A stretch of 54,694 nucleotides of DNA, taken from positions 1 through 54,694 of the forward strand of contig CALVSQ010000003.1 of NCBI GenBank assembly GCA_944359085.1, read 5' to 3'. Below are positions 5,488 through 31,603 of this stretch, piece by piece. The notes beneath the pieces are model-generated. The model was not told the origin of the DNA and ran no database searches. It saw only the letters and a list, made by a program, of their open reading frames with translations. The position numbers and the translations under genes were made by a program. This DNA comes from an uncultured Bacilli bacterium. Its GTDB lineage: Bacteria > Bacillota_I > Bacilli_A > RF39 > UBA660. Position 1 is the first letter of the stretch. Each line of letters begins with the position of its first letter.

Positions 5488-5511
5488 GATATAATTTAAA
5501 TAGGTGGTATT

Positions 5512-6498
5512 ATGAGTATCCTTGAAAACGATAATTTACAAAATCTTATTTTGAAATCATTAAAATCAAATTATGATTTTGGTTATTTTTGTAAATTATT
5601 TAAAGAAAATAAGTTTTTTGAATATTTTGCAAATTTATCTAATAAAGATAAATTTAACATTATATATTATATAAAATTAAATGAAAGAAATGGTAAAAAT
5701 TTAAATCAAAACAATGATGAATTTTATAATGAAGTAAAAAAATGGGAAAGTAGTTTACATGACAGATTAAGCAGTGAAAAAATTGAACAACCTGAATTAG
5801 AATTTATTATAAAATTAGTGGCTGATAGTATAATTAATAATAAAAATGTTGATAAAAATTTAATAATTAATTTAACTGAAAATTATATTTTTAAATTACC
5901 ATTAATGATTGCTGAAGAATTACCAATTTTATTAATGTATAATTTTTATTTAATTAATCAATTTACAAATTCAAAATCTAATATTGCTTTTACAACAGAT
6001 ACTTATACATTCGCTCATATTAAAAATTATGAACAACCAGAAATTGTTTTTATAAATTATGATGTATATCATCAACTTCTTGGATTAGAGCAAATTAGTG
6101 CACAAGACTATTATGAGATGTTTTGTTATCAAACATTTGCTTTGCTGCATGAATTTAAACATTTAAAGCAATATGAATATATGATTAGTCACGATGATGA
6201 ATATGCTAAAGTTATTGGATTAGACATTGGTGTTATTAGCTATGATTATGATTTTTATCAAGAAAATCATGATATGTTTTTTATTGAGAGAGAAGCAAAT
6301 GAATTTGGATATAAAAATTTAAACAATTTTTGTTATAATCTATTATCACAAGATTATATTGCAAAATTTATTGAGTTATCAAAAGCTAGCACTTTATCTA
6401 ATAAATTATCTAAAGATGAATTTAAGACTGGTTATGATGAAAGATGCAATCAAATTTCAAAATTGATTGCATCAGATGAAAAAGAACCTAATTTATAA
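5512..6498 (+). CDS. Hypothetical protein with zincin-like HExxH motif
   Basis: LLHEFKHLKQ followed by IEREANEFG (possible third zinc ligand); RBS aggtgg. Confidence 0.7.
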   Translation: MSILENDNLQNLILKSLKSNYDFGYFCKLFKENKFFEYFANLSNKDKFNIIYYIKLNERNGKNLNQNNDEFYNEVKKWESSLHDRLSSEKIEQPELEFIIKLVADSIINNKNVDKNLIINLTENYIFKLPLMIAEELPILLMYNFYLINQFTNSKSNIAFTTDTYTFAHIKNYEQPEIVFINYDVYHQLLGLEQISAQDYYEMFCYQTFALLHEFKHLKQYEYMISHDDEYAKVIGLDIGVISYDYDFYQENHDMFFIEREANEFGYKNLNNFCYNLLSQDYIAKFIELSKASTLSNKLSKDEFKTGYDERCNQISKLIASDEKEPNL

Positions 6499-12458: not shown

Positions 12459-14141
12459 ATGAAGAAAGCATTTACATTAATAGAATTATTAGCCGTAATA
12501 ATTCTATTAGCTATAGTAGCATTAATAGCAACGCCTATTATATTAGATGTGATTGATGATGCTCGTATATCAGCTGGTAGGTCAGAAGCAAATATGATAT
12601 TAAGTGGAATTAATAATTATTGTGACACAGAAGAAATAAAATTTCAGATGGATAGTAATTATAGTAAAATATGTACATCAAGTATGGATAAAGATGATGT
12701 ACTAACAATGGTTAATTTAGGCAATGCCACAATAGATAAAATAACATATAATGGATCTAAATTAACAGAATTGGTTATAACAAGTAATAACCATAAATTT
12801 ACATTATGTCCAAGTGGCACATTTTCAATGGATGATGAAGAATGTGATGGTGAAGTAGAACAATCAGGTAATTTAATATCAACATTGTTACAACAATATC
12901 AAGAAGGAAATGAAGTTGGTTTAGTAAAAGATAATACAAATCCTAATTTATATTACTATACTGGAACAAATGAAGAAGTAGCAAATAATTTCTTATGGTA
13001 TGGCGGCCATCAATGGCGAGTATTAGAGTTTAATACTGAAGAAAAGACATTAACTTTGATCACTCAGCAACCATTGACAGCGATTTATCCTTCTACTGGA
13101 ATATGGGATACTCAAGACGAATATAAGTCAAGTTATATAAACAAATGGCTAAACAATTATTTTTGGAATAGTTTAGATAGTAGTATTCAATTTAATATCA
13201 AGGATAGCACATTTAATGTGGGAATATATACTGATGTGGATGAAATAACAACAATTCAAAAAGTAGGATTATTAGATGAAGAACAATATAAAAGAGCTGG
13301 AGAATTAGATTCATTTTTAGATATTAAAGATGATTTTTGGTTGGGCAACAGACAAGACTTATTATATCATAGGTATGTTGGAAATGGTGCCCTTTCTGGT
13401 GGACAAGCTAAATATAATTATAAGTTTGGTGTTCGAGCTGTAGTTAGAATTTCTGATGTGTTTATTAACGAAGGTGACGGAACTCTTTATAACAATTATC
13501 GTAAGATTAGTGATTTAAAAAACTTTAATGATGTTCAGGTTGGAGAATACATAAGTTTAACATATAGTCGTGGTGATGGTAAATGTGGAAATGATAATAT
13601 GTGTTTATTTAGAGTGGTAAGTAAAGATATTGACAAGGTTAAATTGATTTTTAACGGAGTATTAGATAGGCAACCATATTTAAATGAGGCCTCAATAACA
13701 CCTGATTCGATAATATATTCACATTTAAATTATTTCAAACAAGCATTAAATGAAGATTATTTAACAAAAGGCGATTTTGGTAAAGGAATTTATGGTGATT
13801 CTCCCAATTATGCTGACGTATATTTTGAAGTTATTAATGAATATATAGGGTTGCCGACAGTAGGGGAGATGTTTAGCGGAAACGATATTGATTTAAGTAC
13901 ATCAAATATCAAAATATTTGTCGATGTAAACACAATAGAAAATCCGATAATAAATGATTATTGGACAATGAATAGATATGATTATGATAAAGTTAATTTT
14001 ATTTACGATAATGGTGGTTTATATAATATGACTCATGCTGCTGCAGGTGGTCGTGGACTTCGTCCAGTAATATATTTAAAATCAGGATTAACATTTACCT
14101 CTGGAGAAGGAACTGCTCAATCTCCATATATATTGCAATGA
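12459..14141 (+). CDS. Type IV pilin-like protein with tandem CLec/DUF6273-like domains
   Basis: MKKA|FTLIELL; two domains ending GVRAVVRI...GDGT and GLRPVIYL...GEGTAQSPY. Confidence 0.85.
   Translation: MKKAFTLIELLAVIILLAIVALIATPIILDVIDDARISAGRSEANMILSGINNYCDTEEIKFQMDSNYSKICTSSMDKDDVLTMVNLGNATIDKITYNGSKLTELVITSNNHKFTLCPSGTFSMDDEECDGEVEQSGNLISTLLQQYQEGNEVGLVKDNTNPNLYYYTGTNEEVANNFLWYGGHQWRVLEFNTEEKTLTLITQQPLTAIYPSTGIWDTQDEYKSSYINKWLNNYFWNSLDSSIQFNIKDSTFNVGIYTDVDEITTIQKVGLLDEEQYKRAGELDSFLDIKDDFWLGNRQDLLYHRYVGNGALSGGQAKYNYKFGVRAVVRISDVFINEGDGTLYNNYRKISDLKNFNDVQVGEYISLTYSRGDGKCGNDNMCLFRVVSKDIDKVKLIFNGVLDRQPYLNEASITPDSIIYSHLNYFKQALNEDYLTKGDFGKGIYGDSPNYADVYFEVINEYIGLPTVGEMFSGNDIDLSTSNIKIFVDVNTIENPIINDYWTMNRYDYDKVNFIYDNGGLYNMTHAAAGGRGLRPVIYLKSGLTFTSGEGTAQSPYILQ
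12792..12824 (+). repeat. 33-bp block identical to 30206-30238
   Basis: cataaatttacattatgtccaagtggcacattt, encoding HKFTLCPSGTF at the end of the pilin domain. Confidence 0.95.
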
Positions 14142-28122: not shown

Positions 28123-29763
28123 ATGAAAAAGATTATATTTTTAATTGTTACGTTTTTATTTAGTATTAGTGTTGTTTCAGCTAAAAATAATATTTATAGT
28201 ATTGATATAAAAGTTTATTTAGATGAAGAAGGAAATGCTGATATAGAAGAAATTTGGAATGTTAAAGGCTCTGATGGAACTGAATGGTATAAAGTTTTAA
28301 ATAACCTGGGTAATATGGAATTATCTAACTATAAAGTTTATATGGATGGTAATTTATTAAATTATAAAGAATGGGATGTTGATGAATCATTAAGTGAAAA
28401 AAAAGGATATTATGGTATTAATAAAACTTATGATGGATTAGAATTATGTTTTGGTAAATATGATTATAATAAACATACATTTAAATTAGAATATGAATTA
28501 AGTAATTTTATATTTAATACTGATGATGCTCAAGTTATTTATTATAATTTTATAGATAAATTATCTAATGTTAATTTTGATAGTTTTACATTAGAAATAT
28601 CAAGTTTTTATGAATTTCCTGATACATTAGATGTTTGGGGTTACGGATATAAAGGATATGCTTATGTTTATGATGGAAAAATATATATGTCAAATGAATC
28701 AGATATGAATGGTAATTATGCTGTTTTATTAGCTAAATTTCCTTTGAATACTTTTAATACTACTAATAAAACTAAATATGATACATTTGAAGAAGTTTAT
28801 AATATAGCAGAACAAGGTACTTTTGATTATGATTATTCTAATAATACATTTGGCATTTTAGATTTTATATTTGGCATTTTAAATATTTTATTATGCTTTC
28901 TTCCATTTATAATTGTTTATTTAATAGCACGCAGTACTTTATATGGATATAAAGATAATAAAGTAATTAATAAAAAAAATACACCATTATTTAGAGATAT
29001 TCCTTGTAATAAAGATATTTATTATGCTAATGCATTGGCTAGTTTAAATAAATGGTCAAAATCTTCTGCAAGTATTTTAGGAGCAATATTATTAAAATGG
29101 ATTAGAGAAAATAAAGTTCAAATATTAAAAGAAAAATCTACTAAAATTGTTCTTAATAAAGATATCAAATTAGATATCAAAGAAGAACAAGAATTATATG
29201 ATATGATGTATAAAGCTAGTGTTGATGGAATATTAGAATCCAAAGAATTAGAAAAGTGGGCTAAAAATAATTATAGTAAATATTTAAATTTATTTGATAA
29301 AATTAAAAATAATAAGATTAGAGAATTAAAAGAACAAGGTCATATTTATAAAAGAACTAATCGCAAAGAATGTAAATACCAAAATGTCATGGATGATATT
29401 TTATATGAAGATTCTAAAAAGTTATATGGTTTAAAATTGTTTTTAGAAGAATTTTCTTCTATTGACACAAAAGAAGCTATTGAAGTTAAACTATGGGATG
29501 AATATTTAATGTTTGCTTATATATTTGGTATAGCTGATAAAGTAGCTAAACAATTTAAAAATTTATATCCTGAATATGTTGAAAACTTAGATAATGTTGA
29601 TTTTGATACTATTATATTTTTAAATACTATTTCAACTAGATCAGTATCTGCAGCTTCAACTGCAAGAAGTAGAGCAGAGTCTTATTCATCTGGCGGTGGT
29701 GGATTCTCATCAGGTGGCGGAGGAGGAGGTTCCTTCGGTGGTGGTGGCGGTGGAAGCCGTTAA
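28123..29763 (+). CDS. DUF2207-family membrane protein
   Basis: Signal peptide, internal TM, LWDEYLMFAYIFGIAD, Gly/Ser-rich tail SSGGGGFSSGGGGGG. Confidence 0.85.
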   Translation: MKKIIFLIVTFLFSISVVSAKNNIYSIDIKVYLDEEGNADIEEIWNVKGSDGTEWYKVLNNLGNMELSNYKVYMDGNLLNYKEWDVDESLSEKKGYYGINKTYDGLELCFGKYDYNKHTFKLEYELSNFIFNTDDAQVIYYNFIDKLSNVNFDSFTLEISSFYEFPDTLDVWGYGYKGYAYVYDGKIYMSNESDMNGNYAVLLAKFPLNTFNTTNKTKYDTFEEVYNIAEQGTFDYDYSNNTFGILDFIFGILNILLCFLPFIIVYLIARSTLYGYKDNKVINKKNTPLFRDIPCNKDIYYANALASLNKWSKSSASILGAILLKWIRENKVQILKEKSTKIVLNKDIKLDIKEEQELYDMMYKASVDGILESKELEKWAKNNYSKYLNLFDKIKNNKIRELKEQGHIYKRTNRKECKYQNVMDDILYEDSKKLYGLKLFLEEFSSIDTKEAIEVKLWDEYLMFAYIFGIADKVAKQFKNLYPEYVENLDNVDFDTIIFLNTISTRSVSAASTARSRAESYSSGGGGFSSGGGGGGSFGGGGGGSR

Positions 29764-29863: not shown

Positions 29864-31603
29864 ATGAAAAATAAAAAAAACGGTTTTACATTAATAGAAT
29901 TATTAGCTGTAATTGTAATATTAGCAATCGTCGCTTTAATTGCAATACCTATTGTTTTAGATATAATAGATGATGCAAGGATATCTGCCGGTAATTCAGA
30001 AGCATACATGATATTAAGTAGTATAAATAATTATTGTGAAAGTGAAGAAATGAAATATCAAATAGATAATAGTTATGACAAAATATGTACCTCAAGTATG
30101 AATGTAGGTAATGTAAAAGATATGATTAATTTAGGGAATGCTGAAATAAAAGAAATAGCATATGATGGAGAAAAATTAACAACATTAGTTATAGAAAGTA
30201 ATAATCATAAATTTACATTATGTCCAAGTGGCACATTTGCTATGGATGATGAGAAGTGTGATGGCGAAGTTGGATTAGTAGGAATTTCAATGTTAGAAAA
30301 AACTAAAGAATTAGTATATGAAAATGAGACATGTAAAACAGATGGAACAACATATCAATACATGGGTGGCTGTTATTTAAAAGGGAATCCAAATAATAAT
30401 TACATTTGGTATTCCGGATTCTTATGGCGTATCATGGGAATAAATGCTGATAAAGAATCAGTAAAATTAATATTAGATGAAAGCGTAACAGCAATTCCTT
30501 ATCATGAGGGTAGTTCAAATTGGAACGGAAGTTATGCTAAAGATTGGTTAAATAATTATTTTTATAAAAGATTAAAAGGAAATAACATAATAAAAGAAGT
30601 AACATGGTGTAGTGAAACTATCACGAATGAAAATAGTGCAAGAACAGAATGCACAACGAATTTGTCAACTGCCTATGTAGGTTTAATAACATTAGATGAA
30701 TATAATTTAGCAGGAGGATCAAGTTCATATTTAAATATGGGTCAATATCAATGGACAATGACACCATATGATGATTATTATGTATGGGACATTAGCAACG
30801 ATGGCAACACCTATTTTTATGGAGCTTCCGATAAAGGTGGATTGCGTGCTGTTATAAATGTAAAACTTGATGCCACAATTACCGGTGGAAATGGTACTTT
30901 AGGAGAAATTTGGAGTAGTGAATCTGGACCATATATTTTAAATGAAGTTAAAAATATTGAAATAACAGGAAAATTAAATGAAAAATCAACAAGTGGTGAA
31001 TATGTATTATTTGCTGGTAAGAAATATCGAGTAGTAGATAAAGATAGTGATGGTAATACAAAATTAATATTAGATGGGTACTATGAAGAAAAAGATGATA
31101 TTCCATATACTATGAAATATGGTAACGATAATTTGTTTACAAAAACCCAAGGAATTGGATTGAAACTAAATATAGATGTGTTAGATTGGTTAATCGCAAA
31201 CAGTGATACAGAAAATAGGAATAAATTAGTAGTAGACTACACTTGGTATCAAAACAATTTTGAGTATGGTGATAGCTATACAATTTCATTAGAAGAAACA
31301 AACCCAACAAGAAGTGTAAATTCAACGATAGGATTAATAAGAGTCGGCGAAATGCTATCTGGACAAAGCAGTAGTGTATTGACTAAAGGTTATACAACAA
31401 CAAGCAATTTTAATAATATATCTACCTATTGGACAATGACACCAGATACAACTAGTTCTAGTGCATGGGCTGTTGCCTATGATGGTAATGCTTTCAAAAA
31501 TGGTGTGTCTAGTATTTATAGTATTCGTCCCGTTATAGTCGTAACCGCTGATATCACAATTACAAAAGGTAATGGCACTTGGAGTAACCCATATGAAATA
31601 TAA
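29864..31603 (+). CDS. Type IV pilin-like protein with tandem CLec/DUF6273-like domains (paralog of 12459)
   Basis: KKNG|FTLIELL; first ~130 aa closely similar to 12459; domains ending GLRAVINV...GNGT and SIRPVIVV...GNGTWSNPY. Confidence 0.85.
   Translation: MKNKKNGFTLIELLAVIVILAIVALIAIPIVLDIIDDARISAGNSEAYMILSSINNYCESEEMKYQIDNSYDKICTSSMNVGNVKDMINLGNAEIKEIAYDGEKLTTLVIESNNHKFTLCPSGTFAMDDEKCDGEVGLVGISMLEKTKELVYENETCKTDGTTYQYMGGCYLKGNPNNNYIWYSGFLWRIMGINADKESVKLILDESVTAIPYHEGSSNWNGSYAKDWLNNYFYKRLKGNNIIKEVTWCSETITNENSARTECTTNLSTAYVGLITLDEYNLAGGSSSYLNMGQYQWTMTPYDDYYVWDISNDGNTYFYGASDKGGLRAVINVKLDATITGGNGTLGEIWSSESGPYILNEVKNIEITGKLNEKSTSGEYVLFAGKKYRVVDKDSDGNTKLILDGYYEEKDDIPYTMKYGNDNLFTKTQGIGLKLNIDVLDWLIANSDTENRNKLVVDYTWYQNNFEYGDSYTISLEETNPTRSVNSTIGLIRVGEMLSGQSSSVLTKGYTTTSNFNNISTYWTMTPDTTSSSAWAVAYDGNAFKNGVSSIYSIRPVIVVTADITITKGNGTWSNPYEI
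30206..30238 (+). repeat. 33-bp block identical to 12792-12824
   Basis: cataaatttacattatgtccaagtggcacattt. Confidence 0.95.

Follow-up and report, generated by a model that had tools for sequence, protein, structure and literature searches.

The DNA stretch analyzed here (the window, 54,694 nt) is contig CALVSQ010000003.1 (C3) of an uncultured Bacilli bacterium (GCA_944359085.1, here G000), an assembly of 1.126 Mb in 59 contigs, with 24% G+C and 68% complete. The stretch was also found in 20 gut metagenome runs, mostly labelled chicken gut and belonging to 13 studies. The gene under study encodes a prepilin-type protein in which a pilin module is followed by two DUF6273 domains resembling C-type lectins (CLec). 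The initial annotation, made from the sequence alone, had noticed in each domain a patch of pyrimidine-ending codons placed behind an identical 15-mer. It had proposed that both patches are current or former remote targets of a diversity-generating retroelement (DGR), which mutates AAY codons of a template repeat (TR) to NNY codons in a variable region (VR), Y being a pyrimidine and N any base. The results make it probable that the patches are former VRs of a type IV pilin, now decayed and no longer serviced. The features of the gene are summarized in Table 1.

Table 1. Features of the prepilin-type gene, in positions of the window
Feature	Positions	Strand	Basis
Modular prepilin-type protein of 579 aa (pilin module and two DUF6273/CLec-like domains)	29864..31603	+	Open reading frame, Pfam, TIGR02532, AlphaFold2
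Prepilin leader G-F-T-L-I-E (Glu at +5), long alpha-1 helix and small beta-sheet; pilin module about residues 3-132	29870..30259	+	
DUF6273/C-type-lectin-like domain 1, residues about 140-363	30281..30952	+	
WTMTP 15-mer TGGACAATGACACCA, conserved 5' flank of patch 1	30752..30766	+	
Probable relic variable region 1, 79 nt, gap-free colinear with family template repeats	30773..30851	+	
Broken inverted repeat after patch 1, ACAATTACC-GGT-GGAAATGGT, 2 of 9 stem pairs lost	30875..30895	+	
DUF6273/C-type-lectin-like domain 2, residues about 371-565	30974..31558	+	
WTMTP 15-mer TGGACAATGACACCA, conserved 5' flank of patch 2	31430..31444	+	
Probable relic variable region 2, 79 nt, gap-free colinear with family template repeats	31454..31532	+	
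Broken inverted repeat after patch 2, ACAATTACA-AAA-GGTAATGGC, 3 of 9 stem pairs lost	31556..31576	+	

The leader of the protein, ...NGFTLIELLAV..., has the traits of a class III signal peptide (Gly at -1, Phe at +1, Glu at +5 and a hydrophobic alpha-1 helix). Pfam gave N_methyl with 35.2 bits (cut-off 21.2) and DUF6273 (PF19789) with 27.5 bits (cut-off 23.5), and NCBIfam gave TIGR02532, the GFxxxE pilin domain, with 31.8 versus a cut-off of 16.3. A further DUF6273 match at 31397-31543 covered profile positions 121-170, so that the protein contains two such domains. Concerning the fold, an AlphaFold2 model built on 67 more diverse sequences reached a mean pLDDT of 92.3 and a pTM of 0.80; it replaced a model from 89 close homologues with a mean pLDDT of 55.8, for which Foldseek returned no match at E ≤ 1e-3. 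Residues 180-335 and 371-565 of the accepted model matched C-type lectin-like/FGE-type domains, the fold that the initial annotation had expected, and they shared the fold of a solved DUF6273 member. Matches to 23 phage proteins were obtained at E ≤ 1e-3 (best E 4.8e-15), several of them named DUF6273. Each patch was modelled as three short strands (residues 306-310, 316-320 and 324-327; 533-537, 543-547 and 551-553) at the C-terminal end of its domain, which is where the patches had been placed from the sequence. A prepilin peptidase (Peptidase_A24), a T2SSF platform protein and T2SSE ATPases are encoded in the same assembly, on C5 and C37, together with about 20 open reading frames (ORFs) with a prepilin motif (22 motif matches, two of which, a 17-aa fragment and one located away from the N-terminus, appear spurious).

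Homologues of the window protein were numerous, with at least 716 at E ≤ 1e-10 for the protein and 896 clusters at 50% identity for one domain. The family statistics were derived from an alignment of 89 full-length homologues; the identity between the window protein and 88 full-length homologues ranges from 56 to 75%. Across the 89, Trp297, Thr298 and Pro301 are at least 90% conserved and Thr300 is invariant. Entropy exceeded 2.8 bits at 22 columns, 11 in each patch (306, 309, 311-313, 315, 317-319, 323 and 325; 533, 536, 538-540, 542, 544-546, 550 and 552), which are set in an otherwise conserved scaffold, S-S-x-A-W-x-V-x-x-x-G-x-A-...-V-S-x-T-x-G-L-R-A-V-I. The mutagenesis of AAY to NNY codons cannot yield Lys, Glu, Gln, Met or Trp, and these five amino acids made up 47 of 1945 residues (2.4%) at the hypervariable columns versus 993 of 4852 (20.5%) at 55 variable control columns. 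In the window gene itself, a pyrimidine occupies the third position of 21 of the 22 codons that correspond to hypervariable columns.

The codon counts and the 15-mer positions of the initial annotation were correct on recounting. Pyrimidine-ending codons amount to 20 of 25 at 30767-30841, seven of these ending in C, and to 21 of 26 at 31445-31522, compared to 285 of 579 (49%) in the whole gene; a sliding window of 25 codons reached 20 or more at these two places only in the gene. When the expectation was computed from the amino acids and the codon use of the genome (695 long ORFs), it was 18.9 for patch 1 (z 0.7) and 17.6 for patch 2 (z 1.7). So, it can be said that the NNY excess is mostly compositional, because the content of Tyr, Asp, Asn, Ser and Gly forces pyrimidine endings. 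The vanishing of the excess after such a correction had been named beforehand as a refutation of the DGR proposal, and it was largely seen; nevertheless, it is the wrong test of a DGR origin, because a DGR acts through amino-acid composition. The codons ending in C behaved differently: patch 1 has 7 versus 1.54 expected (Poisson-binomial P = 5.5e-4), which is the maximum of the gene, and patch 2 has 2 versus 1.41. The rare codons AAC, GGC, AGC, ACC, TCC and GAC cluster in patch 1, and this excess, which persisted after the correction, is not explained by amino-acid content. The shared 15-mer was dropped as a mark of recent copying: given the same peptide, its identity has a chance of about 0.09 (ACA 0.43 x ACA 0.43 x CCA 0.50).

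The DGR parts and the AAY-rich template that the proposal called for were found in the same genome, outside the window. A search of the assembly with the profile PF00078 gave two reverse transcriptase (RT) genes, on C32 and C42. The one on C32 belongs to a complete DGR cassette (C32:8641-12794, L011, minus strand), in which a prepilin protein of 551-571 aa with an FGE-like C-terminus is followed by its VR (11230-11082), a 9-bp hairpin, the TR (10796-10648), a MutS-domain-I-like ORF (129 aa), bAvd (114 aa; PF22296, 66 bits, cut-off 40, 4.9e-18) and the RT (339 aa). This TR/VR pair spans 149 nt with 10 mismatches, every one at a template A, and the VR is the C-terminus of that other prepilin protein; the repeat has 51% G+C within a genome of 24% G+C. 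The C32 template was rejected as a source of the window patches: it gave no BLASTN match to them (word size 7, E ≤ 10), and it serves a different, FGE-like pilin C-terminus. The C42 gene was rejected as a DGR RT, being a retron RT. It lies at C42:3032-3985 (L001 1282-2235, minus strand) and encodes 318 aa, with a PADLOC match to RT_Ec107-like at 2.8e-123 and 225 bits to the NCBIfam retron St85 family, under the cut-off of 235.

A second type of template was located with a mismatch scan blind to template adenines. It lies at C17:21462-21540, 3' of the paralogue C17_19615, whose protein is 71% identical to the window protein; it has 26 adenines in 79 nt, consists largely of AAC and AAT codons and is colinear with both patches of C17_19615. 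Around it extends a conserved module of about 230 nt, non-coding, of which it is the core. The C-ending codons of patch 1 are remnants of the AAC, GGC, GCC and TCC codons of the template. Modules occur at C17:21402-21640 and at 5506-5711 (L012, L018, L019), each 3' of a pilin paralogue and without a nearby RT, the latter module (3' of C17_3708) being degraded by an 18-nt deletion inside the template. Compared to its own adjacent TR, C17_19615 showed 15 mismatches at A and 8 at other bases in VR1, and 14 and 7 in VR2, while against the template of the related genome G018 the non-A mismatches were just 4 and 5. A DUF6273 pilin of another subtype is encoded at C4:14000-15667 (C-terminus ...YLKSG...GEGTPNSPYVLQ). 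Its two patches had 7-8 non-A mismatches to templates of G024 and G014, no such TR being present in the G000 assembly, and it may be a live or recently live target. The RT of the second clade, which accompanies this template type in relatives, was not found in the 68%-complete assembly; it may lie in the missing third, it may have been lost in the strain, or the C32 RT may serve the C17 modules. The Avd-like ORF of G002 likewise gave no match in G000 at E ≤ 0.001.

In related genomes the same parts stand together. A 239-nt module used as the query matched 17 of the 29 other genomes in the genus (E ≤ 0.01); in 12 of those 17 a copy spans at least 190 nt of the query, and several copies are present in some genomes. 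In 8 genomes the module is followed, about 0.9 kb further 3', by an RT of the second clade that shares about 40% identity with the C32 RT, the cassette order being the prepilin target with two DUF6273 domains, the module, an ORF of 116/117 aa, an Avd-like ORF and the RT. The targets of G002, G011 and G015 belong to the same family as the window protein (shared leader; C-terminus ...TITGGNGTWS.PY.I) and have clean VRs. Expressed as A/non-A mismatches to the adjacent TR, the counts were 14/1 (VR1) and 9/0 (VR2) in G002, 12/0 and 12/2 in G011, 14/1 for VR1 of G015 (VR2 was left unscored owing to an indel), and 7/2 and 13/7 in G004. The serviced VRs of relatives have 0-2 non-A mismatches, to be compared with 30-34 for chance matches in the same scans. 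The window patches are position-by-position homologous to VRs that are rewritten in close relatives, and to this extent the initial view of them was right.

G018 contains at least four modules and a single RT of the matching clade. Four of its modules are situated at a contig boundary or within about 100 nt of one, which indicates that such parts are easily lost from assemblies. For the module, RNAalifold predicted a hairpin on the 5' side and a long-range stem around the template; 3 of the 58 pairs are compensatory. The 3' part of the module (L018:3546-3692, the same as C17:21545-21691) resembled Rfam RT-14 (RF02921), a motif that owes its name to an association with reverse transcriptase genes, over model positions 1-144 of 144, though the match was below threshold (E 0.02; 30.5 bits versus a gathering threshold of 48.1). 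A joint search of six loci at E ≤ 0.1 did not return it, and the possible kinship is a lead only. In the template of L027 (G013:C80, about 1557-1635) adenines are lost at several AAC positions (TTC, TAC, TAT, AGC), leaving 19 A versus 24-29; it looks as if VR sequence had been copied back into the template, or as if the template had decayed. T-box leaders were seen 3' of the DGR cassette or TR module at L046:467-645 and L047:3899-4074 (G011 and G028; 115.7 and 113.8 bits), that of L047 being directly upstream of an aspartyl-tRNA synthetase-like ORF, an ordinary location.

The window patches were compared with 15 distinct TR 79-mers. Against the best of them, patch 1 mismatched at 19 non-A sites, of which 11 are third codon positions, and at 14 A sites, and patch 2 mismatched at 15 non-A sites, of which again 11 are third positions. 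These counts are far from chance and far from the serviced state. Three other prepilin genes, run through the same scan, gave no match at 24 or fewer non-A mismatches. Both patches could be aligned codon by codon, ungapped, to TR-B, the template type of C17. At codon positions 1-2, patch 2 mismatched it at 13 of 26 template-A sites versus 4 of 28 non-A sites (Fisher p 0.0077).

Several signs of decay were observed in the window copy. No cognate TR was found for either patch among the 15 TRs and the C32 TR. When the patches were compared with each other, 23 of the 53 non-A template sites were different, versus 1-2 in G002 and G011, so that one TR could not serve both. Off-consensus residues occupy 11 of the 26 scaffold positions of the window protein (15 are kept), while the median of the family is 3 and C17_19615 has none. 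The 7-nt VR end CGTGCAG is replaced by CGTGCTG and CGTCCCG. An intact inverted repeat, ACCATTACC-N3-GGTAATGGT, of 9 bp and placed 30 nt past the Arg codon, is present in 10 of 10 VRs of relatives and of C17_19615; after both window patches it is broken. No TR module lies 3' of the window gene, where the next ORF starts after just 79 nt. In the DGR of BPP-1 there is a hairpin 3' of the VR, and the VR 3' end shared with the TR and the downstream inverted repeat are required for target recognition. By analogy, the 7-nt end and the hairpin would be needed for homing in this family as well.

Concerning variation between strains, the window protein was identical at 575 of 579 residues to the only other member of its 90% cluster, none of the 4 changes being in the patches. 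In C17_19615 compared to its variant, VR1 was identical, while VR2 had 14 differences, of which 13 fall in template codons that contain A, and the scaffold was unchanged. So, the DGR system has been recently active in the species, as VR2 of C17_19615 varies between strains, and not detectably on the window gene, whose patches do not vary. The C17_19615 variants also differ by 11 more changes at residues 476-523, upstream of VR2, which may represent a recombination tract. For the window patches, the absence of variation is a finding with low statistical power, derived from two variants and from contigs. Contigs of metagenomes were also considered: four contig sets searched at 80% likeness gave mostly relatives and paralogues, in pieces that end near 30769 and start again near 30838-30878, so that the patches are barely covered or not at all, and such a gap in cover is no evidence. 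One run, from the same study as the run with the best match to the stretch, contained near-identical pieces across both patches, of 810 nt (3 other letters) and 563 nt (5).

In the surroundings of the gene, two further prepilin-type genes are present in the window, at 172-2343 (723 aa) and 12459-14141 (560 aa, DUF6273-type); neither matched any of the 15 templates at 24 or fewer non-A mismatches. The product of the upstream neighbour (28123-29763) is 546 aa long, with a signal-like segment at the N-terminus and a tail rich in Gly (...SSGGGGFSSGGGGGGSFGGGGGGSR), and NCBIfam gave no match for it at E ≤ 0.001. No orthologue of the pilin gene by position, upstream of ppdK, was found: of 27 matching genomes of the genus, only G001 has a nearby pilin gene, of another subtype, in a comparison where three genomes had less than 250 nt of upstream sequence.

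It seems reasonable to interpret, with a probability of about 0.8, that the window patches were once DGR variable regions in a type IV pilin and are now decayed and no longer serviced. Of the two options left by the initial annotation, current or former targets, the second is favored: no TR of the 15 fits, the VR ends and hairpins are broken, and the strain variants are identical in the patches. In the mechanism proposed, a TR RNA rich in AAC and AAT codons would be reverse-transcribed with errors at adenines, and the cDNA would replace both VRs, randomizing 11 positions per domain within the NNY set and leaving the scaffold fixed. The window copy would then have lost its TR module, the exact CGTGCAG end and the 9-bp hairpin, thereby leaving the mutagenic cycle, and its patches would have drifted by ordinary mutation, largely from C to T at third positions under the AT pressure of the genome. 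The copy looks frozen, and the protein is most likely a pilus-displayed adhesin or lectin of fixed specificity, as predicted from its gene; it would be processed, assembled into a filament and bind a ligand.

Some observations weigh against this interpretation. The contrast between A and non-A sites was not significant in patch 1 (14 of 26 versus 8 of 28 at codon positions 1-2, p 0.096). The lack of change in the patches is weak when taken alone, because 4 substitutions in the protein predict only about 0.4 in the patches, and with two variants of the protein on record, both in contigs, rare variants may exist. A TR that fits the window copy, together with the RT of the second clade, could sit in the third of the genome that is missing from the assembly. 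The scarcity of Lys, Glu, Gln, Met and Trp could in part be the typical composition of binding loops. Finally, homing may have occurred only in an ancestor that preceded the duplication, and not at the window locus.

If the patches were still live remote targets, their templates would have to be in the unassembled third of the genome or in a co-resident phage. The 68% completeness of the assembly leaves room for them, relatives have several distinct TR modules per genome (at least four with one RT in G018, where contigs break at or near them), and C4_14000 offers the case of VRs close to foreign TRs with their own TR not in the assembly. Nevertheless, this possibility is very unlikely, since the 23 of 53 non-A differences between patches demand two separate TRs, both patches lack the CGTGCAG end and the hairpin that all 10 serviced or near-serviced VRs have, 11 of 26 scaffold residues are off consensus, the strain variants show 0 differences in the patches versus 14 in the TR-linked paralogue, and the module is missing from the 79 nt that separate the gene from the next ORF.

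It is also quite unlikely that the patches are ordinary fast-evolving binding loops without DGR ancestry, shaped by positive selection and recombination among pilin paralogues, the TR having once been copied from such a gene. Paralogues abound for such recombination (about 20 prepilin-motif ORFs in a 1.1-Mb assembly), the 11 changes upstream of VR2 in C17_19615 resemble a recombination tract, the length of patch 1 differs among paralogues, and most of the NNY excess goes with the composition correction. On the other hand, ordinary loops would leave unexplained the pyrimidine endings at 21 of 22 hypervariable columns, the cluster of C-ending codons of patch 1 in a genome of 24% G+C (P 5.5e-4) and the dearth of Lys, Glu, Gln, Met and Trp at columns where the template has AAY (2.4% versus 20.5%), and the closest relatives show clean A-only TR/VR mismatches. 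Reducing the patches to a by-product of a composition rich in Tyr, Asp, Asn, Ser and Gly in two homologous domains would agree with the corrected z values of 0.7 and 1.7 and with the 9% chance of the 15-mer. It would not account for the gap-free alignment to a non-coding, AAC-rich template beside a 71%-identical paralogue, for 15-19 non-A mismatches where chance gives 30-34 and three control genes give none at 24 or fewer, or for the excess of C-ending codons that is independent of amino-acid content; we consider it extremely unlikely. The reading of the patches as decayed VRs is retained.

The proposal of the initial annotation holds for the gene family, and the pilins with double VRs and several TR modules are a more interesting result than the window copy itself. 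Tentatively, and with the odds somewhat against the full scheme, one RT in this genus of chicken-gut bacteria with small genomes may serve in trans several dispersed, self-contained and structured TR modules of about 230 nt, each of them linked to a type IV pilin gene of its own. Both lectin-like domains would be rewritten together whenever homing takes place, guided by the in-frame hairpin after each VR, while copies like that of the window would be locked, and the genome would be a library of frozen and live adhesins. If this is true, the loss of the module, the 7-nt end and the hairpin would remove a useful binding specificity from the mutagenic cycle. DGRs are, to our knowledge, the only natural system of targeted protein hypermutation in prokaryotes, and their best-studied targets are phage tail fibres and the tips of Bacteroides type V pili. 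The present results point to a large unnamed family of type IV pilins whose two lectin-like domains are diversified by a DGR with a single template, with several template modules per genome and every stage of a target from live to fossil within one 1.1-Mb assembly. Such a series offers natural contrasts for what makes a target competent (7-nt end, in-frame hairpin, adjacent module) and for dating the exit from the cycle. Moreover, for annotation, NNY-rich patches after W-T-x-T-P in DUF6273 proteins can be used as a mark of DGR ancestry even without a nearby RT. In a literature search, which did not cover the supplements of the large DGR surveys, no double-VR type IV pilins, multi-copy TR modules or in-frame hairpin were found described, and DUF6273 targets of DGRs were described only in phages; those supplements may list others.

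Among known systems, the modular type IV pilins of Streptococcus sanguinis share with the window protein the leader and pilin module bearing a grafted module; PilC carries a lectin module on a type IV pilin. For PilB, PMC8179133 describes a prepilin leader with a grafted adhesive module, as an example of monoderm modular pilins. The S. sanguinis pilins are not known as hypermutated, whereas here there are two CLec-like modules and a DGR, in a protein known from genes, its assembly into pili being predicted. Type V pili of Bacteroides are described as carrying DGR-diversified adhesins; they differ in belonging to another pilus system (lipoprotein precursors) and another phylum, with no prepilin leader. 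In PMC11661182, a "GspG-type pilin" domain appears as a single entry in a list of rare VR-bearing domains.

The nearest likeness is with targets of gut phages. PMC10743442, PMC11792537 and bioRxiv 10.1101/2024.10.15.618418 describe DUF6273 as a CLec-like domain targeted by DGRs, its VR being at the C-terminal end, and they describe one TR serving two targets and targets that outlast the loss of the DGR. The tentaclins, the small "tgt2" of nd4/nd12-like phages and the targets of a Faecalibacterium prophage and of Toutatisvirus share with the present family the Pfam domain, the CLec-like fold, a C-terminal VR that forms beta-hairpin-type surface elements, the service of two VRs by one TR, and persistence without a DGR. 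Unlike them, the domain is fused here to a cellular prepilin module and not to a phage tail or an Ig array, the two VRs are in two domains of one polypeptide and not in two genes, and the VRs of the window copy are decayed. Concerning Mtd of BPP-1 and TvpA of Treponema denticola, the adenine-specific differences between TR and VR on AAY codons and the position of the VR shortly before G-x-R are shared. These proteins have no sequence similarity to the window family, and their single VR is at the protein C-terminus, while here one of the two VRs is internal and the hairpin is coded in the reading frame (T-I-T-G-G-N-G).

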